Positions 1,713-52,135 of a stretch of DNA of 64,000 nucleotides are shown here, piece by piece. Under the pieces are notes generated by a model that was given only the letters and a program-made list of their open reading frames with translations, was not told the origin of the DNA and did not search any database. The stretch's first letter is position 1, and every line of letters begins with the position of its first letter. The DNA comes from a virus. Taxonomy: Duplodnaviria > Heunggongvirae > Uroviricota > Caudoviricetes. The position numbers were made by a program, and so were the translations under genes. Location of the stretch: positions 35,384 to 99,383 of IMG/VR virus record IMGVR_UViG_3300028888_000051. The stretch is one strand, 5' to 3'.

Positions 1713-2084
1713 TTATATTTTATGTATATTTCCTACAACTGACCATGTTTGCCAAGTAATATCTAAAGACTCTAATGTTTCATCTGGATTATCTGTTCTT
1801 AAAACAAATCCTAATTTTTCTTGACACCATTCAACTAAATATTTTTTACCTTTAGTATTTTCAACATAATCATTTTGAAATATCATTTTTTGTGATTTAT
1901 CTAACATTCCAGTACTTCTATCTAATTGAATATTGTAAGTACCAGGTTTATCTTTATCTGTCAAGCCAGTAATAATATTAGAATAATTAAATGCATTAGC
2001 ATATGCAACGTGTACCGGAATAGATTTTTTATTCTCTGTCTTATAAGTTACATATCTATATAAATCACCTCGCATTTTACACAT
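1713..2084 (-). CDS. YopX-family protein
   Basis: STGMLDKSQKMIFQNDYV...VVGNIH resembles the YopX signature; GGAGG SD. Confidence 0.7.
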   Translation of the reverse strand: MCKMRGDLYRYVTYKTENKKSIPVHVAYANAFNYSNIITGLTDKDKPGTYNIQLDRSTGMLDKSQKMIFQNDYVENTKGKKYLVEWCQEKLGFVLRTDNPDETLESLDITWQTWSVVGNIHKI

Positions 2085-3233: not shown

Positions 3234-3617
3234 TCAATCTATACTATTTAAAGTTTCTGTATATCCAAATAAAGCTAATAAACCTATTATAAATTCTATG
3301 TCATCTTTTGTTATGTTATTTTTTAAACTTATTTTTGCAGCATAACTATTAGGATTTTTACCATATTCAATATCTATAAATTTACGAATACCGTCTTGAC
3401 TTAATTTATATTCAAAAGAAGTTTGTAAATTATTATTATCATAAAAAGTATTATAATATAGATTAAGCTCTATTGTATAATATAAAGTAGATGAACTACC
3501 TACTACAACTTTATTCTTTTTAGTCGTAAATTTTTGCATTGTAGCTTTTAAATAATCTATAAGCATCCACCAACATTTTATTTTTGGTTCAACATTTTCT
3601 AACCAATTAATTGACAT
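3234..3617 (-). CDS. Hypothetical protein, possible distant member of the C-terminal-motif family
   Basis: GAGG SD; ends DIEFIIGLLALFG. Confidence 0.6.
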   Translation of the reverse strand: MSINWLENVEPKIKCWWMLIDYLKATMQKFTTKKNKVVVGSSSTLYYTIELNLYYNTFYDNNNLQTSFEYKLSQDGIRKFIDIEYGKNPNSYAAKISLKNNITKDDIEFIIGLLALFGYTETLNSID

Positions 3618-3621
3618 TATA

Positions 3622-4083
3622 TTACCTCATAGTATTTTCTATTAAAATTAAATTTTTCGTAATATCTAAATATCTAATATCTCGATCTACAAAAATAATT
3701 AAATTTTTTTGTGTAATATTACTAGCTCTTGGAAATAAAGCGGTATTAGCATCAAAATATTTTTTAAAAAATTCAATTAATACTTCTCTATATGATTTAT
3801 GCTTTTCTTTAATTATAGAAAAATAAATCAATGTAGCTAAATCATTTGAAATTTTAAATTCTATATACACAGGAAAAGAATTTTTCATAACTGTAAATAA
3901 TTTTTTATCAGAATATCTATTTTTATCATAATATTTACCGTATCTGCCATTTTTACATAAATAATTTTTGCTAAAATGCCAAATTTTATATTCTGGACAT
4001 ATTTTGGTTAACCATTTTATAAATTTATCACGCCTATTACCCTCTATAATTAACCAATGTGTTTTTCCAATTTCTTCTAACAT
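3622..4083 (-). CDS. Hypothetical phage protein
   Basis: Coupled ORF, 153 aa. Confidence 0.6.
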   Translation of the reverse strand: MLEEIGKTHWLIIEGNRRDKFIKWLTKICPEYKIWHFSKNYLCKNGRYGKYYDKNRYSDKKLFTVMKNSFPVYIEFKISNDLATLIYFSIIKEKHKSYREVLIEFFKKYFDANTALFPRASNITQKNLIIFVDRDIRYLDITKNLILIENTMR

Positions 4084-6349: not shown

Positions 6350-6646
6350 TTATACTTCCTTTAATTTCATTAATGTATATAAATCTGCAAAAGAACTACC
6401 ACTGTTAAACGGAGCTCCACACATTACTACAAATTGTTCATCTTCATCAATTTTTTTACCTTTAGCTGCTCCAATATAATATTTTATTTCTTTTGTTAAG
6501 GTATCTAATACTTTAACGATACCAATAGTATTAAGTTCACCTTTATCCATATAATGATATGTTGTTAAAGGAAACCAAATACTATCAATTATAACAAAAT
6601 TAGTCATACCATAACATTTAACTCTACGCTTATTTGTATCAGTCAT
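6350..6646 (-). CDS. Small protein, unrelated core with the shared C-terminal motif
   Basis: Core IGIVKVLD..T.E.KYYIG...DEQ; ends FADLYTLMKLKEV. Confidence 0.7.
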   Translation of the reverse strand: MTDTNKRRVKCYGMTNFVIIDSIWFPLTTYHYMDKGELNTIGIVKVLDTLTKEIKYYIGAAKGKKIDEDEQFVVMCGAPFNSGSSFADLYTLMKLKEV

Positions 6647-6713: not shown

Positions 6714-7070
6714 TCATATTAATCCCATTAATTTTATCAATGTCAAAAATTCATTAAATTCTATTTCAGTTAAGTTATTTTTTAATTTTATTTTAATTGA
6801 ATAGTTTGATATATTTACTTTAATATAATTATCAAAATTTTTATTTTTTAAATATTGTTCAATACTATGTTTTATCATATATAAAGCATTATTTAATCCA
6901 ATTTTATCATAATTTGGATTATCTATTAATTTGAATTTTACTTTTGCAGAACCATCATAATTATGCCAAATATTTCCAAACAAAGTTTTATCATACTTAA
7001 TTATGTGTGAAACAAGTATTTCATATAAAATCATTGAAATTTTAGTTAGTTCTTGATTATTAATAATCAT
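6714..7070 (-). CDS. Small protein, C-terminal-motif family
   Basis: Ends FNEFLTLIKLMGLI. Confidence 0.65.
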   Translation of the reverse strand: MIINNQELTKISMILYEILVSHIIKYDKTLFGNIWHNYDGSAKVKFKLIDNPNYDKIGLNNALYMIKHSIEQYLKNKNFDNYIKVNISNYSIKIKLKNNLTEIEFNEFLTLIKLMGLI

Positions 7071-7074
7071 ATTT

Positions 7075-7518
7075 TTATTCCTTATTACTTATAAATTTAC
7101 ATAATGTATACAATTCATTAAATTTATCATTAGATATATAAAAACTTAAATGTTTCAATCTATAATTTTCATTTTCTAAACAAAGACCAAAATTTTTCAT
7201 GATATTTTCACTTTTCTTTCTACGATTTGTTTTACTCCACACATTAAATTTAATTAAATTATTTGGTATATTATTAAATTGTATATGTACAAACCCTTCT
7301 GAATAAATATAACAACCATCTGTAATCCTATCACCATTAGATTCCCAATGATCATTTAAAGTATTAATAATAAAATTATATTTTTTATTAAATTCATTAA
7401 TATCTTTAATAAATTTTACACGCTCAATTAATTGCATTTCAACAGCTTTTATAATTTTATTTTCTTTCATGATACATTTCCTTTTTATTGATATATTTTT
7501 ATTATCATTTATATGCAT
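7075..7518 (-). CDS. Small protein, C-terminal-motif family (KRK..FGL subfamily)
   Basis: RRKKSENIMKNFGL...NYR...FYI...FNELYTLCKF; true start may be the second Met. Confidence 0.65.
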   Translation of the reverse strand: MHINDNKNISIKRKCIMKENKIIKAVEMQLIERVKFIKDINEFNKKYNFIINTLNDHWESNGDRITDGCYIYSEGFVHIQFNNIPNNLIKFNVWSKTNRRKKSENIMKNFGLCLENENYRLKHLSFYISNDKFNELYTLCKFISNKE

Positions 7519-10876: not shown

Positions 10877-11260
10877 TTAATTTACATATATACAAAGCAA
10901 AGTATAAAGCATATTTATATCATTAGTTTCTAAAACATAATATGTATTTGCATAATTTTTGGCATATACATCTATACGCTTTATATTAAAATTTGTTTCA
11001 AGATAATTTATAAGTTTTTTTCTATTTTTCCATACTCTTAAAATAAATCTTACTCCAGTATTTTTATCATAGGTATATGACACAGCATCATATGGAGCTG
11101 AATCAAATATATCTCCGCGAAAAGTATAAGCGTAATTTTTGTATAAAAAAGTACTATAGTGATAAAAATAATCTGTTGTTGGATTAACCTTCATAAATTC
11201 ATACAAAATGTCATTTAATTTATTAATAGTTTCTGTATATAATCTTTCTTCACAAATCAT
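10877..11260 (-). CDS. Small protein, C-terminal-motif family
   Basis: KNRKKLINYLETNFNI...INMLYTLLCI. Confidence 0.65.
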   Translation of the reverse strand: MICEERLYTETINKLNDILYEFMKVNPTTDYFYHYSTFLYKNYAYTFRGDIFDSAPYDAVSYTYDKNTGVRFILRVWKNRKKLINYLETNFNIKRIDVYAKNYANTYYVLETNDINMLYTLLCIYVN

Positions 11261-11628
11261 TATATTTCCTCTAATAAATATAACAAATCAAACATCTTCA
11301 TATAAACATATAAATAATTTAAACCCTCATCATTTTTATAATTATTTTTGAAGTTAAGAATAAATTGATTTTCATCAGATATAATTTTAAGGTCTATAAA
11401 ATATTCCAAACCAGTAGTATAAAGAAAATCCCTTGTATTTTTACTAAAAGATACTTGTCCAGTTATAGAAGGATCAATTTTATACATAACCAAATATACT
11501 GTTAAATCAGGTGTTTTTGCATTATGAGCATATTCAAATTGGACTACTTTATCACCATTACATGTCAAAATTATATTCTTCAAAAGATGTGTGATTTCAT
11601 TTAATTGAATCATGATTATCCCTTTCAT
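11260..11628 (-). CDS. Small protein, C-terminal-motif family
   Basis: Ends LNYLYVYMKMF. Confidence 0.6.
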   Translation of the reverse strand: MKGIIMIQLNEITHLLKNIILTCNGDKVVQFEYAHNAKTPDLTVYLVMYKIDPSITGQVSFSKNTRDFLYTTGLEYFIDLKIISDENQFILNFKNNYKNDEGLNYLYVYMKMFDLLYLLEEI

Positions 11629-43163: not shown

Positions 43164-43239
43164 TGGTGGAGAATAGGAGACTTGAACTCCTTACCTACTG
43201 AATGCAAATCAGTCGCTCTCCCAGATGAGCTAATTCCCC
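43164..43239 (-). tRNA. tRNA-Ala(TGC)
   Basis: Cloverleaf, G3:U70 pair, loop TT-TGC-AT, encoded CCA. Confidence 0.93.
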
Positions 43240-43726
43240 TCCAAATTAAAAATAACCAATTCTTTAAGCGTGTTAGGTATGCCGTCTTGATACTGACTAC
43301 TCCTTACATCATCATTCTTAGTTGTATGATGACAGCCTAATAATCTCATAATTGACATTTTGCACATAGAGGCATCTTGGTATTCCTTTTGCCAATACTG
43401 GCAACTTTATAATCTAGCTGAGAGACTCCTGACTACTCTCAAGTTATTAATAAGCGTATTATTCAGTCACTTCCGCGTAAATTAGCTATTTTTACGTTAT
43501 ATAGGAAGGTAGGATTGATTACCTACAAACGGATACAGATGTCAGTAATATTCAACTACGATTTGTCCGTTTCTTACGTCACTACAGGTTGGCCGACCTG
43601 CGCTATTTTAACCTTATACTTCTTATTACATCCAACCACAAATAAATCTTTTCAGAATTTATTTATGTACTCTTATTAGCCATCAACTAATTATTCGAGT
43701 AAAGCCTGATAATAATTAAAATAGAT

Positions 43727-43802
43727 TGGTAGCGGGGGTGGGAATTGCACACCACGACCTTCAGGTTATGAGCCTGACAAGCTACTACTGCTCTACCCCG
43801 CA
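43727..43802 (-). tRNA. tRNA-fMet(CAT), initiator-like
   Basis: TGCGGGG acceptor with a 1:72 mismatch, TCAGG-CTCATAA-CCTGA, CCA. Confidence 0.85.
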
Positions 43803-43884
43803 ACAAATAAGTAATTGTTTAGAACTATTTTATTTTTATTTAATTATAATATAATGGTAAAAATTTATTTGTAAAACCTTTTTA

Positions 43885-43960
43885 TGGGGTGATCGATGGG
43901 ACTTGAACCCATATCCTCCAGAACCACAATCTAGCGCTTTACCAATTAAGCTACGAACAC
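43885..43960 (-). tRNA. tRNA-His(GTG)
   Basis: Loop TT-GTG-GT, C73, CCA. Confidence 0.92.
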
Positions 43961-44004
43961 AAGAATAGACCAGATATACTGATATATACTTCTATTCGTA
44001 AAAT

Positions 44005-44078
44005 TGGCAAGGGTTGACTGAATCGAACAATCATCTTTACTTTTGGAGAGTAAGGTTTTACCATTAAACTAAACCCCT
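44005..44078 (-). tRNA. tRNA-Trp(CCA)
   Basis: TTACT-CTCCAAA-AGTAA, G73, CCA. Confidence 0.92.
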
Positions 44079-44083
44079 ATTTT

Positions 44084-44158
44084 TGGAGCGATTCATGAGA
44101 ATTGAACTCATATCTTTAGTTTGGAAGACTAACATAATAACCATTATACGAGAATCGC
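44084..44158 (-). tRNA. tRNA-Gly(TCC)
   Basis: GCG acceptor, loop CT-TCC-AA, U73, CCA. Confidence 0.93.
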
Positions 44159-44160
44159 AT

Positions 44161-44234
44161 TGGAGAACCGTAAGGGAGTCTAACCCCTCTAATTCGGGTT
44201 GCAGCCGAATGCATAAACGCTCTGCCAACGGTCC
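44161..44234 (-). tRNA. tRNA-Cys(GCA)
   Basis: TTCGG-CTGCAAC-CCGAA, U73, CCA. Confidence 0.9.
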
Positions 44235-44236
44235 AT

Positions 44237-44312
44237 TGGTGGCAACAACTTGACTTGAACAAGTAACTACATCCTTATGAGAGATGCTTTCTACCAATTG
44301 AAATATGTTGCC
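44237..44312 (-). tRNA. tRNA-Met(CAT), elongator-like
   Basis: GGC acceptor, loop CT-CAT-AA, A73; Ile2 not excluded. Confidence 0.8.
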
Positions 44313-44313
44313 A

Positions 44314-44389
44314 TGGTGTGTGCAGTAGGGCTCGAACCTACGACTCACGGCTTAAAAGGCCGTTACTCTACCAACTGAGTTATACACAC
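44314..44389 (-). tRNA. tRNA-Lys(TTT)
   Basis: ACGGC-CTTTTAA-GCCGT, CCA. Confidence 0.93.
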
Positions 44390-44391
44390 AT

Positions 44392-44467
44392 TGGTGGATC
44401 CTCAGAGAATCGAACTCCATCCTTCTGTTCTTCAGACAGACGTACGCACCAGCTATACCAAAGATCC
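44392..44467 (-). tRNA. tRNA-Phe(GAA)
   Basis: TCTGT-CTGAAGA-ACAGA, CCA. Confidence 0.92.
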
Positions 44468-44481
44468 AAATTTATAATAAT

Positions 44482-44514
44482 AAAAAAACCTCTGAACTTT
44501 TTATTTTCAGAGGT
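44482..44514 (-). terminator. Attenuator terminator upstream of the Phe-Lys-Met-Cys-Gly-Trp-His tRNA array
   Basis: ACCTCTGAA-AATAAAAAG-TTCAGAGGT-TTTTTT; the 5' arm can alternatively pair with GGAGGTA in the leader ORF. Confidence 0.85.
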
Positions 44515-44552
44515 ATGCCTTTAATCTTAATTTTATTTATTAATAAGGTTAA

Positions 44553-44627
44553 TTAAACATTACCTCCGCTAGTTTTACCGGCGAAGCCAAACATATGCCA
44601 ACATTTTTTAACCATATTAATCATCAT
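44553..44627 (-). CDS. Putative attenuator leader peptide 1: MMINMVKKCWHMFGFAGKTSGGNV
   Basis: ATG 4 nt after GTTCTATA; core KKCWHMFGF covers all 7 amino acids of the downstream tRNAs. Confidence 0.8.
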   Translation of the reverse strand: MMINMVKKCWHMFGFAGKTSGGNV

Positions 44628-44812
44628 ATTATATAGAACCTTTCTTTATTTTATATTTTATATATAATTTAAATTTTTTTATTTGTAAAACTGTTTTAAA
44701 TAAGAAATAATATTAAATTGAAAAACTTTACGTATTTTTCTTGAGTACTTCCCAACAACGGTTAACACTTAAAGGAGTTAAAGTCAGCATTATATTGGAA
44801 GTAATTGTATTA

Positions 44813-45106
44813 TTAATAACACAAATCAGAATTTGTACAAGAATTATATGGCTTACGACTATATGATACTTCTTCATATGTCTTAGGCTCATATACTGTT
44901 GTGTATGTAATATCTTTATAAATTACTTCTACAGGTTTTGAAACTGTATAAGATGTAGAACAAGTATTACATTCATTATAATAAGATACATTATGTGTTA
45001 CAACTGGTTTGGTTTCTTGTACTTTTTGTACAGGCTGAATTTCTTCTGTTTCACAACATGTACAACCACTTAATAACATTAAACTCAATATTAAAAATTT
45101 TTTCAT
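44813..45106 (-). CDS. Putative lipoprotein
   Basis: MKKFLILSLMLLSGC lipobox; GGAGG SD. Confidence 0.75.
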   Translation of the reverse strand: MKKFLILSLMLLSGCTCCETEEIQPVQKVQETKPVVTHNVSYYNECNTCSTSYTVSKPVEVIYKDITYTTVYEPKTYEEVSYSRKPYNSCTNSDLCY

Positions 45107-45166
45107 TTTATTCCCTCCAAAAAGGCATCAATATTTTTAAAACAATTGTTATATAACAAGAACTTT

Positions 45167-45388
45167 TTATTTTGTAAAACCTTTATTATTTTCATAATCT
45201 AAAAAATTATTTATTGAATTATATGTCATATTTATTAATGTACTACTAGATTCTTCATTAAATTTATTTTTACCATCATAAAAATTTAACATATATAGTA
45301 ATTGACAAAAATTCATATTTGGATATTTTTTGACATAGTATTCTAAAGTTTTTAGAATTTCTTCATTGTATTCTAATTTTGATTTCAT
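45167..45388 (-). CDS. Hypothetical protein; paralog of the N-terminus of 52137-52601
   Basis: KKYPNMNFCQLL vs KKYPELRFQQLL; F.EES..T vs FYENS..T. Confidence 0.6.
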   Translation of the reverse strand: MKSKLEYNEEILKTLEYYVKKYPNMNFCQLLYMLNFYDGKNKFNEESSSTLINMTYNSINNFLDYENNKGFTK

Positions 45389-45417
45389 ATTAAAATATTC
45401 CTTTCTTTTATAGTAGA

Positions 45418-45612
45418 TTATTTAAGTACTAACATACAATTTTTAATATTTAAATAATCTACTATATCTTTTTTCCAATTAAACTTTTTAAACTTCTTCT
45501 TTTTGTTTGGTATAATTTTTGTTCTTAACATACCGCTTTGCCACATATTCATCAATTGTAAATTACGAATTTTTGGCTTTTTTAATTTAATAGTTATAAT
45601 TTCTTTTTTCAT
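45418..45612 (-). CDS. Small basic protein
   Basis: AGGAG SD; Lys-rich. Confidence 0.55.
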   Translation of the reverse strand: MKKEIITIKLKKPKIRNLQLMNMWQSGMLRTKIIPNKKKKFKKFNWKKDIVDYLNIKNCMLVLK

Positions 45613-45634
45613 AAATTTTCTCCTAATAAAAAAT

Positions 45635-45727
45635 TGGCGGATACTGTAGGGCTCGAACCTACGCGAGATGTTACCATCCCCTAACGGTTTAGCAAACCGT
45701 CCTCTTCACCAACTTGAGTAAGTATCC
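45635..45727 (-). tRNA. tRNA-Ser(GCT)
   Basis: ACGGT-TTGCTAA-ACCGT, long variable arm, G73, CCA. Confidence 0.92.
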
Positions 45728-45757
45728 AAAAAAGGAGGAAATTAATCCTCCATAAAA

Positions 45758-46063
45758 TTATTTTTTCTTTTTAAATTTAGATTTAATCCAATTATATAAA
45801 CAAACTAAACTTTTCCAAATCATTTTTAATGTCGACGTAATAAAATCAATTAAAAAAGATTTGATAATTTTATATAAGCCACTAAAAATTGCTTTTAACC
45901 AAGCCCACAAAGCTTTTAAAAAAGACACAATAGGTTCTTTAATTAAATGCCAAGAAGTTGAAAATAAACTTCTTATTGCTTTCCAAGCTTCAGTAGAAAA
46001 AGATTTTAAACTTTTCCACCACTCTTTTATAATTTCTTTAAATGTCATTTGAGTTATCTCCAT
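45758..46063 (-). CDS. Amphipathic Trp/Lys-rich helical repeat protein
   Basis: W..(L/I)K.. repeats with about 11-residue periodicity. Confidence 0.55.
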   Translation of the reverse strand: MEITQMTFKEIIKEWWKSLKSFSTEAWKAIRSLFSTSWHLIKEPIVSFLKALWAWLKAIFSGLYKIIKSFLIDFITSTLKMIWKSLVCLYNWIKSKFKKKK

Positions 46064-46074
46064 AAATTACATAT

Positions 46075-46177
46075 TGGTGGGAAGTTGTGGAATCGAACCA
46101 TCCGTCTCTTTAACTAGTACTTACGAGGACAAGGGTACTAGTCCTTGTCATAGTCTCCATAGCTATATAAGCTTCCC
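46075..46177 (-). ncRNA. tRNA-like RNA with a pseudoknot in place of the anticodon arm
   Basis: GGGAAG/CTTCCC-A-CCA acceptor, TGG-TTCGATT-CCA T-arm; interlocked GACAAGG/CCTTGTC and ACTAGTAC/GTACTAGT stems. Confidence 0.6.
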
Positions 46178-46439
46178 TTAAATGATTGATTATTACTTTA
46201 TTTGTCGTGAAAGCGTTAGGCAAGGTTAGGTCAACAAAGTCTTTCGGTTATCACAGCTTCCCTAAGAAAATTCCTATTAGCCTTTTCGATGGTTGCCTCT
46301 ATCATCTGTGTATTAGATTTACATAATCAATCTTCTGCACGACCAGAATAATTTTACTCCCATTATTAAAATACTGGTGGTTAATTCCACGAACAGAGAA
46401 TTGTGCTGTGTTAAACCTGAAGCCTCTGGAGTTCAATAT

Positions 46440-46667
46440 TTATTTTTGTAAATAATTTATAATATCTTTAACAGTTATAAATTTTTCCATTGCTGCATCT
46501 GGAATATCTTTTCCAAAGTTTTCTTCTAATAAAACAGTAATTTCTACTAAATCGAGACTATCCATATATAAATCATCTGATAATTTTGAATTTTCAGTTA
46601 TAGTTTCTTTTGAAATTCCTAAATTTTCAGACAAGATAGACTTAACTTTTTCTAGAGTTTTATCCAT
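46440..46667 (-). CDS. acpP: Acyl carrier protein
   Basis: DDLYMDSLDLVEI...LEE.FG..IPD...EK..TV.DII.Y with the phosphopantetheine Ser. Confidence 0.9.
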   Translation of the reverse strand: MDKTLEKVKSILSENLGISKETITENSKLSDDLYMDSLDLVEITVLLEENFGKDIPDAAMEKFITVKDIINYLQK

Positions 46668-46676
46668 GTTATACCT

Positions 46677-46871
46677 TTATTTTTTCTTTTTCTTTGTTTC
46701 AATTACAACAGATGTTTCTTTTTTTGGACCTTTTGTATTACATTTTGGAGCTTTACCAATATTTGGATTTAATTTATTATTATAAATAATAGGACTTAAC
46801 TTTAAATATTTTCCCCATTTCTTTTTAAATTGTTGTTCTTCGAAATTCTTCTTTTTTTCTTCATCTGTCAT
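46677..46871 (-). CDS. Small basic hypothetical protein
   Basis: AAGGAGG SD. Confidence 0.6.
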   Translation of the reverse strand: MTDEEKKKNFEEQQFKKKWGKYLKLSPIIYNNKLNPNIGKAPKCNTKGPKKETSVVIETKKKKK

Positions 46872-46886
46872 AATTATCCTCCTTAA

Positions 46887-47261
46887 TTAATGTGAAAAAT
46901 TTTTAAAATGTTGTTTTGTTTGTATAAATATATTATTATCCATACTTTTTGCTTTTTCTTCAGCTAATCTGTCATAATAAGCATATCTATCTTTCGTTAA
47001 TGGATAATAATATAATGCTTTCGAATCTAAAATAACATATTTTTTAATTTCTTGCTCTGATTTATTTGCATATACATCACATAGCATATCAAAAAACTGT
47101 TGCTGTAACTCTTCATCTTGCATAGACTTTTTATAATATCGTGACATTTTATGAGCTTCTAATGCAATATTAGCTTGAGTTTCTATAGCTCTTTGTTTAT
47201 CACCAGACAATTTAATAAATTTAGACTCCTTTTTTAAAAATGAAAAATGTCTATAATTCAT
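46887..47261 (-). CDS. Hypothetical phage protein
   Basis: GTTCTAA motif upstream (47309-47315). Confidence 0.65.
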   Translation of the reverse strand: MNYRHFSFLKKESKFIKLSGDKQRAIETQANIALEAHKMSRYYKKSMQDEELQQQFFDMLCDVYANKSEQEIKKYVILDSKALYYYPLTKDRYAYYDRLAEEKAKSMDNNIFIQTKQHFKNFSH

Positions 47262-47441
47262 TTTAATTGTATCCTATAAAAATTTATAAAATTAATCAAA
47301 CATTATCATTAGAACTAAAATATCATTTGTCCATTTTAAAAATAAGACCTAGGAATTTTTAAAACTCTATGTCATTTCATAGGACAGATCATAACATTAC
47401 TAAGATGTCATAGGATTACTGGGACAATTCTTTATATAAAT

Positions 47442-47517
47442 TGGCTAGGGAAGGTGGGATCGAACCACCAGTCTTCCGAGTCAAAGTCGGAAATTTTACC
47501 AATTAAACTATTCCCTA
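47442..47517 (-). tRNA. tRNA-Gln(TTG)
   Basis: U1:A72, loop CT-TTG-AC, G73, CCA. Confidence 0.92.
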
Positions 47518-47578
47518 AATAAAAAAAAAGAAGGGAACAGGGACCATATGATGTAATCTCAGTGTATTGTTCCCATAA

Positions 47579-47710
47579 TGACAGTTGGAGGAGGAGTCGA
47601 ACCTCACACTATATAACTTTGCAGAGCTATATATTTCCCTCTACTTCCCGTTTTCTTAATCAAACTTTCTTACTGCAATAGTACTTATTTGACATAGTAG
47701 AGCCCCAACC
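47579..47710 (-). ncRNA. tRNA-like RNA with a greatly expanded D-arm
   Basis: GGTTGGG/TCCAACT acceptor, GAGG-TTCGACT-CCTC T-arm, CTCTACT...AGTAGAG closing a long insert, stem with loop CTGCAA; 3' end TCA. Confidence 0.5.
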
Positions 47711-47792
47711 ATAAAAATAGTGACTTTTTGATCATATAGTTTATCACTATTGAACCTAAACGGAGAAGTCACTAAAGAAACTCCCTAAAACT

Positions 47793-47886
47793 TGGCACCT
47801 CGTAAACTGATTCGAACAGCATTCCCGTACTAATTGACTGGAGCTATAGACTATTCAATTAGCGGTCACCATGACTACAACGAGGT
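47793..47886 (-). ncRNA. tRNA-like RNA with an extended anticodon arm
   Basis: ACCTCGT/ACGAGGT-G-CCA, D-arm GTC-ATGGT-GAC, 9-bp stem with a 17-nt loop, T-loop TTCGAAT. Confidence 0.6.
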
Positions 47887-47891
47887 ATAAT

Positions 47892-47970
47892 TGGCGCCCT
47901 CACATGATTTTCACACGTTATCTTGGACCTACATCCTAAGCTATCTATTCGCGACTAGATATAACAGGGC
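47892..47970 (-). ncRNA. Degenerate tRNA-like RNA
   Basis: GCCCT/AGGGC-G-CCA with three internal hairpins in cloverleaf order and non-canonical loops. Confidence 0.45.
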
Positions 47971-48191
47971 ATAAAAATGTCACCAGTTTTTACCCTTTAT
48001 CCACTCACTGTTCGAACATCTTAGTGTTGGAGGATCAAGTTACCATTTTCGACAGCACATAGTTACTTAGGCGATCAATTCTAAGTACTAACAACTGATA
48101 AACTTGTCTAATTATATAAACATCAACTTAATACTTATTCAGCGTACTTTCATATTAAATTGTACTAGTCTATATAATCATGAATTAGAAT

Positions 48192-48277
48192 TGGTGGAAG
48201 GTGATAGAGTCGCACTACCCGAGCCCGAAGGCAACAGATTTACAGTCTGTCCCGCTACTCCTACGGTATAACCTTCC
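48192..48277 (-). tRNA. tRNA-Tyr(GTA)
   Basis: ACAGA-CTGTAAA-TCTGT, variable arm, A73, CCA. Confidence 0.92.
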
Positions 48278-48538
48278 ATAAAAAACAACAGTCTTAACGT
48301 AACTGTTATGATGGGTAAAACGAAATAATATCAAGATATCTACTATATGTGCACCTATTAAATATCTTACTAGTCATTATTTTAACTAACTTTATCTCAA
48401 GTAATAAAGCATACAATAGCATTAACGATTCTATTAAACGGAAAGGGTTTTTTCTCTAAATCCTTTCGAAACGGAAACCGTTTTTACCGAGGTAGGTTTC
48501 ATACCTATTCTACAAAAAATCCTTTAAAATCAAAGACT

Positions 48539-48616
48539 TGGTCGGGGCGAGAGGATTCTAACCTCCGACATCTTGCTCCCAAAGCAAGCGCTCTAAACAG
48601 GCTGAGCTACGCCCCG
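48539..48616 (-). tRNA. tRNA-Pro(TGG)
   Basis: CGG acceptor start, loop TT-TGG-GA, CCA. Confidence 0.93.
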
Positions 48617-48796
48617 AATAAACGATTGAAATTTTACTCATTAAAATCTTTTTGTAAAGAGTTGCCAATGTTTTCAATTTTCGGAAACATTAAAAGGAAG
48701 TCATTATATGCAGTTTTATCATCGGGGTTGTATATAATACTCGTAACAACTCTTTGCAAAAGGACTCTAATCAAATATTCATCCTACTAGAAAAAT

Positions 48797-48872
48797 TGGT
48801 CCACTGGCTTGGACTTGAACCAAGAATAGAGGTTTATAAGACCCCCGTTATAACCACTTTAACTACCTGTGG
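48797..48872 (-). tRNA. tRNA-Ile(TAT)
   Basis: GGGGT-CTTATAA-ACCTC, A73, CCA. Confidence 0.85.
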
Positions 48873-48876
48873 ATAT

Positions 48877-48951
48877 TGGTGATCCCAGCGGTATTCGAAA
48901 CCACATTACCAGAATGAAAATCTGATGTCCTAACCATTAGACGATGGGACC
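48877..48951 (-). tRNA. tRNA-Glu(TTC)
   Basis: TCAGA-TTTTCAT-TCTGG, CCA. Confidence 0.9.
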
Positions 48952-49057
48952 TCGAAAAAGTTTTATATTAGCATACCTACTACACAATCATAATGCTAAT
49001 AAAGGTATATAGTTTATTAGATAGTAGGTTCCATAAACCAAACTTTTTAACCTTAAA

Positions 49058-49136
49058 TGGCGGTGCTTACGGGGCTCGAACCCGTGAATCTTCGCCGTGA
49101 CAGGGCGATGTCCTAGACCAACTGAACGAAAGCACC
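49058..49136 (-). tRNA. tRNA-Asp(GTC)
   Basis: TCGCC-CTGTCAC-GGCGA, G73, CCA. Confidence 0.93.
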
Positions 49137-49141
49137 TTAAT

Positions 49142-49228
49142 TGGTGCGCTAGACCAGAGTCGAACTGGTACGCCATTACTGGCAACAGATTTTAAGTCTG
49201 CAGCGTCTACCTATTCCGCCACAAGCGC
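49142..49228 (-). tRNA. tRNA-Leu(TAA)
   Basis: GCAGA-CTTAAAA-TCTGT, variable arm, A73, CCA. Confidence 0.93.
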
Positions 49229-49236
49229 ATAAATTA

Positions 49237-49599
49237 TTATAAATTATTTCGTATTTTATGGTGTAATTCTCTATGACAATTTGCACATAACATAATACAT
49301 TTATCTAATTCTTTTTTAATTTTTTCAAAAGATTTTGTACTTCCATCTCCTCCAATTCCAAAATCTTTTTCTTCAGGATTTAAATGATGAAATTCTAAAG
49401 CATCTATACAGGTATCATAACCACAAATTTCACATTTGCCACCTTTATATTCAACAGCTTTTTTCTTTAATACTTGTCTTCTTTTTATAACAGCTTCAGA
49501 TCCACATTTTTTACAACGCCATCTTTTTTCTGAATCTCTAAGTACAAAATCTGTTAAACCATGTTTATTGCATATTCTTTTTTCAATTTTAGATACCAT
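49237..49599 (-). CDS. HNH endonuclease inserted in the tRNA array
   Basis: YKGGKCEICGY...ALEFHH..P..KDF...ELDKCIMLCANCHRELH. Confidence 0.85.
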   Translation of the reverse strand: MVSKIEKRICNKHGLTDFVLRDSEKRWRCKKCGSEAVIKRRQVLKKKAVEYKGGKCEICGYDTCIDALEFHHLNPEEKDFGIGGDGSTKSFEKIKKELDKCIMLCANCHRELHHKIRNNL

Positions 49600-49618
49600 A
49601 TAAATAATCCTTTAAATT

Positions 49619-49694
49619 TGGCTGGCCCGGAGGGTCACGATCCCCCGACATCGAAATTAACAGTTTCGCGTTCTTCCAACTGAACTACGGGCCA
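49619..49694 (-). tRNA. tRNA-Asn(GTT)
   Basis: CGAAA-CTGTTAA-TTTCG, G73, CCA. Confidence 0.9.
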
Positions 49695-49700
49695 ATATAA

Positions 49701-49776
49701 TGGTGCCGACGGAGAGACTTGAACTCCCGACCCACTGATTACAAATCAGTAGCTCTACCAACTGAGCTACGTCGGC
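49701..49776 (-). tRNA. tRNA-Thr(TGT)
   Basis: GCC acceptor, loop TT-TGT-AA, CCA. Confidence 0.94.
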
Positions 49777-49832
49777 TTTAAGGCTACCTTCTATTTAACC
49801 TTGAAAGGTAGTAGCAAGGTGTTAAAGATAGT

Positions 49833-49913
49833 TTGGAATGTGGAAGCGAATCCATCTTCCTTTTTGTACCCTAGGCCTGACCGATATACACTTTACAATG
49901 TATAACATCCCAA
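49833..49913 (-). ncRNA. Candidate structured RNA, copy A of a two-copy motif
   Basis: TTGGGATGTTATA...GGTCAGGCC...GGTACAAAA...ACATTCCAA. Confidence 0.45.
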
Positions 49914-50033
49914 GACTTGTAGTTTTCATAACGGTCCATTTAGAGATTCTACTGAGCACTGTCCGTTATGGGAATCTGCTTTGTTAAGGAGCTCTAAATC
50001 TCTTAACTGCAGTTACTACAACCCTCTCAGCAG

Positions 50034-50438
50034 CTAATCCTTAATATTTACTAACTCATAAACATTGATTGGATATTTCCTTTGTTCACAAGCAGCAATT
50101 TTATAAATTCTATGTTTATCTATACCTAAGATATATTTTACAATTCTACCGATATCTTTACCAGCTTCGGCTTCTGGGTTATTAATGTTTCTTTTTAGAT
50201 GGTACTGATATACATAATCTAATGGTGTATAAGACCAATCTCTGAATCTACCACCAACAATATCAGAAGTAGTGAATTGTTTTTTATAAGTCAAAGCTCC
50301 TTGAATCATACCATTTATAAAAGTGGTCAATTCAGCTTGTTGCATATAAGATAGTGATTCAAAAGCACTCGACTTTTGTGTATTAGAATTGATAATCATA
50401 GCTCTTTTCCTTTCATGTATGATTATAATGTTAAACAA
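50034..50438 (-). CDS. Hypothetical phage protein
   Basis: GAAAGGA SD before MIINSN; F...DIVGG...DW..TPL. Confidence 0.65.
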   Translation of the reverse strand: MFNIIIIHERKRAMIINSNTQKSSAFESLSYMQQAELTTFINGMIQGALTYKKQFTTSDIVGGRFRDWSYTPLDYVYQYHLKRNINNPEAEAGKDIGRIVKYILGIDKHRIYKIAACEQRKYPINVYELVNIKD

Positions 50439-50492
50439 AATTTATTAAATGAGAAATAAATTATTTAATGACTCCTATTTCAAAAAGTCAGT

Positions 50493-50569
50493 TGGCAGAC
50501 CGTACAGGACTCAAACCTGTGACACCAAGCTTAGAAGGCTTGTGCTCTTTTCAACTGAGCTAACGGTCT
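50493..50569 (-). tRNA. tRNA-Arg(TCT)
   Basis: CAAGC-CTTCTAA-GCTTG, CCA. Confidence 0.92.
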
Positions 50570-50580
50570 ATAAAAAATGT

Positions 50581-50699
50581 TTTGGGATAGGTAGTGGTAC
50601 ACATCTACGTACGTGACTCTTTTGTGCCTGAAAGACTTACGGTATAAAACCTACTAGTTCGGTCTGACCATCATAGCATTACTGATATGACATCCCAAA
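50581..50699 (-). ncRNA. Candidate structured RNA, copy B of a two-copy motif
   Basis: TTGGGATGTCATA...GGTCAGACC...GGCACAAAA...ATCCCAAA. Confidence 0.45.
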
Positions 50700-50719
50700 A
50701 AAATTTTGTAGCTTTTTAT

Positions 50720-50806
50720 TGGCGGAAGATTGAGGTGTCGATCCCCATACCTCTCGGTACTCACTGTTTTCAAGACAGGATTCTAGGCCGCTAGAATTAA
50801 TCTTCC
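50720..50806 (-). tRNA. tRNA-Ser(TGA) with an extended D-stem
   Basis: Loop CT-TGA-AA, variable arm, G73, CCA; D-stem ATTCTAG-CGGC-CTAGAAT. Confidence 0.85.
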
Positions 50807-50965
50807 ATAAATTGTACAGGATTAACTATCAAAACAATAAGACGCTCTTCTGATTAAGCTAATCCTGTATATTTAATATTATTTCTTATTCACAATGTCT
50901 TTATAACTCTTACGAAAAACAAAATTATATATAGCGTATAATTTTTTATTTGTAAAGCTGTTTAT

Positions 50966-51000
50966 AAAAAACCCGCTAATTTTTTATTTTTAGCGGGTTT
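50966..51000 (-). terminator. Attenuator terminator upstream of the Ser-Arg-Thr-Asn-Leu-Asp-Glu-Ile-Pro-Tyr-Gln tRNA array
   Basis: AAACCCGCTAA-AAATAAAAAA-TTAGCGGGTTT-TTT; the 5' arm can alternatively pair with GGGTTTAGTTTTA at the leader stop. Confidence 0.85.
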
Positions 51001-51031
51001 AATCTTATTTTTATGATAATTTTGAGTAAAA

Positions 51032-51100
51032 CTAAACCCTCAGCCTAACTATTCTAGGTTGATTATATGAATTTAAGTATGTTTCTATCATTATCATCAT
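51032..51100 (-). CDS. Putative attenuator leader peptide 2: MMIMIETYLNSYNQPRIVRLRV
   Basis: ATG 5 nt after GTTCTATA; 13 consecutive codons (IETYLNSYNQPRI) all correspond to downstream tRNAs. Confidence 0.8.
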   Translation of the reverse strand: MMIMIETYLNSYNQPRIVRLRV

Positions 51101-51121
51101 GTTTTTATAGAACTATTTAAT

Positions 51122-52135
51122 TTATCTAAAATCATCAATTATTTCTGATAATGCTTCAATTAAATCTTCTGCTTCTTCTAAACCAATTGATAATCTAAAA
51201 AAATTTGTATTTTCGAAACCTGTAATTACACTAAAATTTACTCCAAAAGTATCTGCTTTTTGAAAAAGCTTAACTTTTTTTATTGTTTCTATCTTTTGTA
51301 TACTTTTTATTGATTCAATAAGTATTATTCCAGTTTCAGTTATCGAATAATAATTTATATTTTCTTGTTTTAAATATTTACAGATTTTTTCAGTTGTATC
51401 TTTTATTTTATTTAATCTTAGTCTTAATGTTTGTAAACCTAAAATAGTAAAATAACAATCAATTGGATGTGGATAAAAACTAAAAATTTTAGATATATCT
51501 TTCATTTTGGAAAATTTATCTTTTGTTTTTTCGTTAGTCATTAATACACCTAACATAGAAGTATTATATCCACAACTACATTTACTTAAACTTTCAATAA
51601 CAAAATCTACATTATACTCAAATGGATTAAATACTAAACCTGTATAACATGAATTATCTACTAATACATATGCTCCAATAGAATGAGCTTTTTCAACTAA
51701 ATTTTTTATATATTCTTTGTTATCTATACAATATGGAATACTACACGATTCTAAACATATTATATCATTTTTAGATATTTTATTTAAATCTGTTAATTCT
51801 ATAGCTTTGCCTTTAAGATTATATGCATCTATCATTTCAGGATATGTATTTTGCAAATAATAAATTTTATTAAACTCATCTGAAATACTAATTAATGTTG
51901 CAGAGGCAACTCCACTATTCAAAACCAAAATTTCTTTTATGTCTCTATTATATATTTTACTTACTATTGTAGCTAAAGCTAACCTGTTGTTAATAGAATC
52001 ACCACGTTTATACTTAAAAAATCTACCATGTTTGATATCTAATTCATCTGAAAAAGAATTGTTTAAATCAATTGTATTTGGTTTAATAATATCTTTATAT
52101 ACATCAGGACTAATTAATAAAGTATCTTTTTTCAT
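51122..52135 (-). CDS. PLP-dependent Cys/Met metabolism enzyme (cystathionine gamma-lyase/synthase family)
   Basis: NSGVAS, LES..IP, VLVDNS...FNPF....DFVIESLSK (PLP Lys), GLQTLRLR, FRLSIGLE..EDLI. Confidence 0.8.
   Translation of the reverse strand: MKKDTLLISPDVYKDIIKPNTIDLNNSFSDELDIKHGRFFKYKRGDSINNRLALATIVSKIYNRDIKEILVLNSGVASATLISISDEFNKIYYLQNTYPEMIDAYNLKGKAIELTDLNKISKNDIICLESCSIPYCIDNKEYIKNLVEKAHSIGAYVLVDNSCYTGLVFNPFEYNVDFVIESLSKCSCGYNTSMLGVLMTNEKTKDKFSKMKDISKIFSFYPHPIDCYFTILGLQTLRLRLNKIKDTTEKICKYLKQENINYYSITETGIILIESIKSIQKIETIKKVKLFQKADTFGVNFSVITGFENTNFFRLSIGLEEAEDLIEALSEIIDDFR

Follow-up and report, generated by a model that had tools for sequence, protein, structure and literature searches.

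Upstream of a large tRNA gene array in an uncultured phage lies a short open reading frame (ORF) whose codons list the amino acids of the tRNAs encoded downstream, with an intrinsic terminator between the two and an alternative RNA helix that, in silico, a translating ribosome could block. We consider it likely that a phage tRNA operon is gated here by a ribosome-mediated transcription attenuator composed of ORF, antiterminator and terminator, and the tRNAs of the array are probably made only when the listed codons are read slowly. An initial annotation of this DNA had proposed that the leader lists the downstream tRNAs and contains an overlapping antiterminator, and the parts of that proposal accessible in silico hold – a paralogous unit precedes a second tRNA array, similar units recur in related phages, the lists track the arrays, the leaders covary with their own terminator arms, and folding around a modelled ribosome agrees with the scheme.

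To our knowledge, essentially nothing is known of how phage tRNA genes are regulated. The role of these genes has long been debated, with codon compensation set against the replacement of host tRNAs destroyed by defence nucleases (PMC10264068, PMC11555353, PMC12409363). A key phage-tRNA paper does not mention regulation, and a full-text literature search found no published leader peptide or attenuator before tRNA genes. Here, we describe two leader units in a 64,000-nucleotide stretch of the phage genome, referred to as the window, together with their counterparts in related contigs.

The phage and its tRNA arrays

The window is part of a 227,383-bp record of an uncultured virus with 26.6% GC, and because both ends of that record overlap, a circular assembly is indicated. 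Its neighbouring genes are phage-like and include those for a major head protein, a DnaB-type helicase, RNase H, and HNH endonucleases. No close relative was found among cultured phages, whose nearest capsids are at most 33% identical, and near and distant DNA searches of the cultured-phage collection, together with a search using the pyridoxal phosphate (PLP)-enzyme protein described below, gave only generic tRNA matches or distant enzyme matches. No model phage carrying a leader unit was found among the cultured phages searched; five were checked, of which three lack tRNAs, a fourth has only one, and the fifth has four but no leader.

All of the tRNA genes in the window lie within one minus-strand region (43164-50806), where they form two arrays (Table 1). 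With default settings, ARAGORN and Rfam identify Arg(tct), Thr(tgt), Asn(gtt), Leu(taa), Asp(gtc), Glu(ttc), Ile(tat), Pro(tgg), and Gln(ttg) genes in array 2, and Ser(tga) (50806-50720) and Tyr(gta) (48276-48192) are called only at relaxed ARAGORN thresholds. The Tyr gene scores 26.6 bits in Rfam, under the 29-bit cut-off; it is near-identical to the Tyr genes of the relatives, and its anticodon loop is GTA. Apart from a doubtful tRNA-Val(gac) (45990-46076, minus strand) called by relaxed ARAGORN, the window phage has no tRNA-Val; in two relatives (G011 and G012) a Val(tac) gene heads array 2.

Several other elements are present among the tRNA genes. Small ORFs at 49237-49599 and 50034-50438 (minus strand) interrupt array 2, one with a weak HNH endonuclease match, and their homologues occupy other positions in the arrays of related phages, which suggests that they are mobile, array-shuffling endonuclease genes. 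An element of about 54 nt (50813-50866, minus strand) lies between a sigma-70-like promoter and tRNA-Ser, and has a 9-bp closing stem (ACAGGATTA / TAATCCTGT) that encloses a D-arm-like segment, with no T arm. The closest relative, L040, lacks it at the corresponding place, and the element may represent a tRNA-like RNA that is truncated or armless. Another structured element, about 90-115 nt long and repeated, follows tRNA genes at 50582-50696 and 49830-49910 (minus strand) and at 3893-3985 in L040; it begins GGGATGT.ATA, includes GGTCAG.CC, has a tRNA-like acceptor at its end, and matches no Rfam family. This element adjoins a longer conserved non-coding block (49800-50030 in the window, 3770-3890 in L040).

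Table 1. Features of the two window units and arrays, and leader units of related phages
Feature	Record	Coordinates	Strand	Codon list or remark	tRNA array
GTTCTATA motif, promoter-like	Window	51106-51113	-	5 nt before leader ATG	
Leader ORF 2	Window	51032-51100	-	22 codons + TAG	
List codons 5-17, proposed sensing codons	Window	51050-51088	-	Ile Glu Thr Tyr Leu Asn Ser Tyr Asn Gln Pro Arg Ile	
Small hairpin inside ORF (CCTAG..TTAGG)	Window	51044-51058	-	Present in all folds	
Antiterminator 5′ strand, across stop codon	Window	51027-51039	-	RNAduplex -16.8 kcal/mol with partner; 9/10 arm bases covered	
Antiterminator 3′ strand	Window	50995-51007	-	Overlaps terminator 5′ arm	
Intrinsic terminator	Window	50965-51000	-	11-bp G+C-cored stem (51000-50990 / 50979-50969), 10-nt A-rich loop, T run to 50965	
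Sigma-70-like promoter (TTTACA, 17 nt, TATATA)	Window	50928-50956	-	Downstream of unit 2 terminator	
tRNA array 2	Window	47442-50806	-	Interrupted by small ORFs	Ser(tga), Arg, Thr, Asn, Leu, Asp, Glu, Ile, Pro, Tyr(gta), Gln
Unit 1	Window	44480-44639	-	GTTCTATA, leader ORF 44627-44553, terminator 44514-44488 + T run	
tRNA array 1	Window	43164-44467	-		Phe, Lys, Met, Cys, Gly, Trp, His, (CAT), Ala
Leader unit	L040 (G001)	3449-3511		Glu Ile Thr Tyr Ser Asp Ser Tyr Asn Gln Pro Glu Ser	Ser Thr Asn Asp Glu Ile Pro Tyr Gln; 9/9
Leader unit	L040 (G001)	6451-6528		12-residue list equal to that of window unit 1	Ala Phe Lys Met Cys Gly Trp His
Leader unit	L042 (G003); same unit in L041 (G002)	7007-7069; L041 reverse complement 7096-7158		Cys Phe Trp Pro Cys Phe Pro	Pro Phe Cys Trp
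Leader unit	L060 (G006)	16374-16294	-	Thr Glu Asn Ser Leu Ala Asp Pro + others	Met Leu Pro Glu Tyr Ala Thr Asn Asp
Leader unit	L060 (G006)	6910-6851	-	Met Phe Lys Tyr Ile Arg	Tyr Ile Phe Lys Met Arg; 6/6
Leader unit	L060 (G006)	1455-1390	-	His Cys Trp Cys His His	Cys His Trp; 3/3
Leader unit	L062 (G009)	1765-1827		Phe Trp His His Phe Pro	His Pro Phe Trp; 4/4
Leader unit	L287 (G011)	1942-2004		Starts Ile Val Thr Tyr Ser	With tRNA-Val(tac)
Leader unit	L288 (G012)	3923-3976		Starts Ile Val Thr Tyr Ser	With tRNA-Val(tac)
Leader unit	L182			Unit-2-type list	Cut by contig end

A leader ORF listing the tRNAs of array 2

The ORF that the initial annotation placed before array 2 is real, on the minus strand and with the translation given there. 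Its codons 5-17 are also as described, and all 13 fall within the amino-acid set of array 2, which lies downstream on the same strand; 10 of the 11 amino acids are covered, and only one or two list codons sample each tRNA. Eight distinct codons indeed match an encoded anticodon by exact complementarity; G:U wobble is needed for AAT and TAT (three positions), and CCT with Pro(tgg) needs extended reading by U34. Asp is, as had been pointed out, the sole array-2 amino acid missing from the list, although a tRNA-Asp is present. The annotation had advised looking for an Asp codon in relatives; it is present in all five relatives of unit 2, so its absence in the window is a local exception. The annotation had also cautioned that most of these codons are the commonest in an AT-rich genome, and most of the list codons are in fact the commonest synonymous codons of this one.

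For comparison, a null set was assembled from the whole genome, consisting of 1719 ATG-started ORFs of 15-35 codons, with a run of at least 13 and a coverage of at least 10 as the criteria for equalling unit 2. Three of the matches are nested starts of leader ORF 2 itself and only one other ORF matches; a run of 13 within the large amino-acid set of array 2 is reached by about 1% of the null small ORFs. Unit 2 by itself is therefore only suggestive, because one unrelated null ORF equals it and its list codons are mostly those preferred by the genome, and it is the paralogue and the relatives that make the case.

The location of the ORF bears on a simpler explanation. A gene for a PLP-dependent enzyme of Cys/Met metabolism (51122-52135, minus strand; 337 aa; Pfam PF01053, E = 4e-25) lies directly upstream, and the ORF falls between its stop at 51122 and the only terminator after it. 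The ORF could accordingly have arisen by chance in an AT-rich 3′ untranslated region, with the terminator merely ending the PLP-enzyme gene, and both the genome-common list codons and the frequency of runs of 13 in the null set would agree with this. We nonetheless find such an origin scarcely credible. The PLP gene is missing at the corresponding place in L040 and the unit is conserved there after a different upstream gene, which shows that it belongs to the array and not to the 3′ end of the PLP gene. A paralogue stands before another array, the lists follow their arrays in eight records, and changes in list codons are synonymous only, as described below; divergent flanks and terminators exclude the related units being assembly copies. 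The PLP gene, of which no kin were found in viral contigs, looks like a recently inserted auxiliary metabolic gene.

A paralogous unit precedes array 1

Array 1 is preceded by a leader of its own, in which codons 7-18 read Lys Lys Cys Trp His Met Phe Gly Phe Ala Gly Lys. All 12 residues match array 1 and its eight amino acids are all represented, giving an exact set that includes the four rarest amino acids of the proteome (1.3-1.8% each). Common to units 1 and 2 are a GTTCTATA..ATGATGAT start, an A-rich terminator loop, and TAAGATTAAA ahead of the stem; the central codons are different, and the two lists have no overlap. The succession of GTTCTATA and ATGATGAT occurs genome-wide only at these two units, and a comparison of own-array with other-array residues over the whole peptides gives p = 3e-5 (Fisher).

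Four orthologues of unit 1 have many replacements in their flanking codons, and the 12 list codons vary at four sites, all synonymously. This restriction of change to synonymous positions would imply that the list is read in the frame of the ORF.

Units in related phages follow their arrays

Seven contigs of related phages were collected by capsid-protein searches (57-89% identity) and by searches with a neighbouring gene and a back-translated list, which gave three of them. They contain 12 further units, bringing the total to 14 units of the same architecture in eight records (Table 1). All of these relatives belong to one clade, so that the 14 units cannot be counted as separate events, although the lists have followed tRNAs through at least six reassortments between arrays.

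The lists track the arrays, in that Val, Arg, Leu, Pro, Ala, and His shift with their tRNA genes. Val is listed only in the two records with a tRNA-Val in the array, the window and L040 having no tRNA-Val in these arrays and any Val of the leader outside the list, and the L040 array behind the 3449-3511 unit has no Arg or Leu tRNA and its list has no Arg. In a leader-by-array matrix, the top score falls on a leader's own or the orthologous array. When nine units were compared with the null set, five had no equal among the 1719 ORFs (seven if the nested starts of the window leaders are set aside); one ORF equals window unit 2, and 38 equal the weakest unit, L060 A.

The identity of the 12-residue unit 1 core in four genomes would also be expected if the small ORFs encoded functional micro-peptides, with the resemblance to the tRNA set being secondary. 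We regard this as very improbable: no motif is common across units except the start and the antiterminator-encoding part, the composition shifts with the array, and runs such as His Cys Trp Cys His His, implausible as folds, fit the tRNA set exactly.

Searches beyond these contigs added little. The pattern GTTCTATA-N4-5-ATGATGA gave mostly chance sites, with only known units and a doubtful one in L141 among the matches listed. Using a MazG-like neighbour gene as anchor identified 80 mostly unrelated phages and one new related contig, L182, and a DnaJ-like gene used in the same way gave only J-domain matches without tRNAs. A scan of small ORFs against arrays in about 2.2 Mb of unrelated MazG-anchored loci yielded nothing new, because few of these loci carry arrays.

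Lists match arrays by amino acid

The initial annotation had emphasized exact complementarity between list codons and encoded anticodons. The correspondence of list and tRNAs stands by amino acid, but exact codon-anticodon complementarity is not conserved in the relatives: the list codons of nine units include 50 exact complements, 32 that need G:U wobble, 14 that are extended or unreadable by the encoded isoacceptor, and one without a cognate tRNA. Strict isoacceptor matching was rejected, with ATT found alongside Ile(tat) in L040 and ATA alongside Ile(gat) in L287. The conserved rule, as judged from these comparisons, is the amino acid.

An enrichment of C-ending codons in the lists (6/37, vs 8% in genes) is unconvincing. 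Gly codons of the unit-1 leaders vary with the isoacceptor in some phages, with GGC and Gly(gcc) in L288 (leader 11216-11290; tRNA 11773), and GGA and Gly(tcc) in L287 and L040 (leader 6451-6528; tRNA 7020). Window unit 1 has GGC with Gly(tcc), and a Gly isoacceptor rule is thus partial and not strict.

Putative promoters and translation start

In all leader units the GTTCTATA motif is located 4-5 nt before the ATG (8 nt in one unit). Genome-wide, 29 of the 88 GTTCTAWW sites are found at a distance of 17-57 nt in front of ORFs of at least 80 aa, compared with 0-3 for controls of like composition, and an AGGAG-like site is usually found between GTTCTAWW and these long ORFs. GTTCTAWW is probably a phage-specific promoter. 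A-rich sequence often lies ahead of it, and it differs from the sigma-70-like TTTACAAATAAA motif; the CAT tRNA (43802) has GTTCTAWW (43818-43825) and the sigma-70-like TTTACAAATAAA motif upstream, with no leader.

No Shine-Dalgarno sequence was found before the leader ATG, which is part of an ATG ATG start; 62% of long ORFs have an SD-like core upstream. With the ATG only 4-5 nt after the motif and no Shine-Dalgarno sequence, a leaderless or nearly leaderless mRNA is plausible.

A sigma-70-like motif, ACAGYTTTACAAATAAA with a TATA-rich hexamer, has three occurrences in the tRNA region. It is upstream of unit 1, yet downstream of the unit 2 terminator, and its placement after the terminator is kept in the unit-2 homologues of L040, L060, and L288. 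A promoter at this position means that the gate acts only on transcripts begun upstream and that part of array-2 expression bypasses it, such that array 2 seems to have one gated and one ungated entry. Some arrays in the related phages have no leader, and one in G009 has the promoter motif only.

Terminator, antiterminator, and a modelled ribosome

A hairpin and T run are present 24-38 nt past the stop codon in every unit, and the hairpin of unit 2 alone has a folding energy of -13.1 kcal/mol. The 13-bp helix that the initial annotation described across the stop codon, with two G:U pairs and an overlap with the terminator arm, is correct to the base. The 3′ end of the ORF can pair with the 5′ arm of the terminator in each of the 10 units examined, with a duplex energy of -13 to -18 kcal/mol and 8-12 arm bases covered. 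Terminator stems vary among the units, and the 3′ zone of each leader has its own arm as its best or second-best partner; pairing averages -14.1 kcal/mol with own arms vs -8.5 with foreign arms, and none of 20,000 permutations matches this.

Translation was represented by folding nascent transcripts with a 28-nt mask stepped along the ORF, a crude model of the ribosome footprint. With the modelled A site on list codons, the probability that the terminator arm is sequestered is 0.5-0.99 in nine of nine units, and it drops to about 0-0.5 over the last five to eight codons, again in all nine. In unit 2 it is 0.5-0.7 to codon 16, 0.5 and 0.4 at codons 17 and 18, and 0 from codon 19. In the model, then, antiterminator loss begins where the list ends, at codons 18-19 for unit 2. 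Shuffle controls support the sequestering pairing in most units; that of unit 2 is weak and is equalled by 24 of 150 shuffles.

The 141-nt leader transcript of unit 2 has a fold z-score of -5.5. When four of the related units are left untranslated, the list region pairs with the antiterminator strand – the classical 1:2 pairing, with termination as the default – and the full-length fold of unit 2 also shows this pairing. The small hairpin inside the ORF is a possible pause or region-1 element. Thermodynamic folds of complete transcripts always favour the terminator, and the switch must therefore be kinetic.

The persistence of the terminator in all thermodynamic folds, the only marginal advantage of the unit 2 antiterminator over shuffles, and the downstream promoter that already supplies the array would be compatible with a leader that senses decoding and has another output – RNA processing or stability, Rho access to an untranslated tRNA precursor, or a switch of the opposite sign. 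Such an output is unlikely, in our estimation, given that a canonical hairpin and T run directly follow the ORF in every unit, that the leader 3′ end covaries with its own terminator arm, and that the end of the list coincides with modelled antiterminator loss in nine of nine units.

A model for tRNA supply on demand

We propose that transcription begins at the GTTCTATA motif or further upstream, and that the transcripts carry the 22-codon ORF, whose middle 13 codons would sample the amino acids of the array. If decoding is fast, the ribosome would arrive at the last five codons and the stop, covering 51039-51027, and the terminator would form, with transcription stopping at about 50966. If the aminoacyl-tRNA for any of these codons is scarce, decoding would slow and the ribosome would wait upstream and the free strand would pair with 51007-50995, sequestering the terminator arm and permitting read-through into the tRNA genes. 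Because array 1 has its own unit and its own list, each tRNA block may be made on demand. We infer translation of the leader ORF, possibly leaderless, as well as the direction of the switch and its physiological signal.

Classical attenuators, when modelled, need several codons for sensitivity (PMC1183508). By comparison with that modelling, one or two codons per amino acid would be expected to sense a severe shortage and not a mild one (PMC1183508), and one may speculate that a severe-shortage response fits the loss of host tRNAs in infection or defence (PMC10264068, PMC11555353, PMC12409363). More tentatively, the units could amount to surveillance of the tRNA pool, in which leaderless mini-ORFs on a phage-specific promoter test the decoding of each amino acid, e.g. 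after the action of host anticodon nucleases, and then switch on the matching tRNA block. This would be a sensor-coupled counter-defence and not simple codon-usage compensation; we consider it possible, though short of probable.

If the model is true, the phage gauges decoding capacity and provides tRNAs one block at a time, as they are needed, and its lists are a direct read-out of the shortages that it expects. Leader-peptide attenuation would then reach RNA genes and lists of up to 12 amino acids, and the units would provide a compact natural sensor of tRNA availability. The list-to-array rule also serves as an annotation aid for divergent phage tRNAs, and predicted the weakly scoring Ser and Tyr genes here.

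Comparison with known attenuators

The closest logic is that of the thr leader, with Thr and Ile codons, and the ilvGMEDA leader, with Leu, Ile, and Val codons, which are multivalent attenuators of enterobacterial amino-acid operons. As in those leaders, the proposed regulatory codons of a phage unit lie in a short ORF and stand for several amino acids, an intrinsic terminator has an overlapping antiterminator that would be set by ribosome position and, in some of the related units, a 1:2 pairing would give termination without translation. Unlike them, the phage units precede tRNA genes and not biosynthetic enzymes, are phage-encoded, and have no Shine-Dalgarno sequence; they list up to 12 amino acids, mostly once or twice each, whereas the thr and ilv leaders have runs of one to three. 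In a permissive Rfam scan of 50963-51065 (minus strand), the best cis-regulatory scores, far below the cut-offs, were 22.9 bits for His_leader (cut-off 49) and 18.1 for Trp_leader (cut-off 41).

The pheST (pheM) leader of E. coli is a leader-peptide attenuator of an aminoacyl-tRNA synthetase, and resembles the phage units in that attenuation controls a translation-apparatus gene serving the amino acid of the regulatory codons; it is, unlike them, cellular, with one amino acid and a synthetase as target. T-boxes bind uncharged tRNA directly, without a ribosome, and control synthetase and amino-acid genes. The phage units share with these riboswitches a choice between terminator and antiterminator that reports a specific tRNA, and no T-box or other riboswitch family was matched at Rfam gathering or permissive thresholds.

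A further parallel is found in mycobacteria, in which leaderless polycysteine short ORFs are reported to act as cysteine-responsive attenuators (bioRxiv 10.1101/834739). Both systems would have a short ORF, perhaps at the transcript 5′ end, with no Shine-Dalgarno sequence, and with a codon content that sets the downstream operon. The mycobacterial ORFs are cellular, with one amino acid and protein-gene targets (bioRxiv 10.1101/834739), unlike the phage units, for which a leaderless start is suggested by the 4-5 nt spacing from GTTCTAWW.
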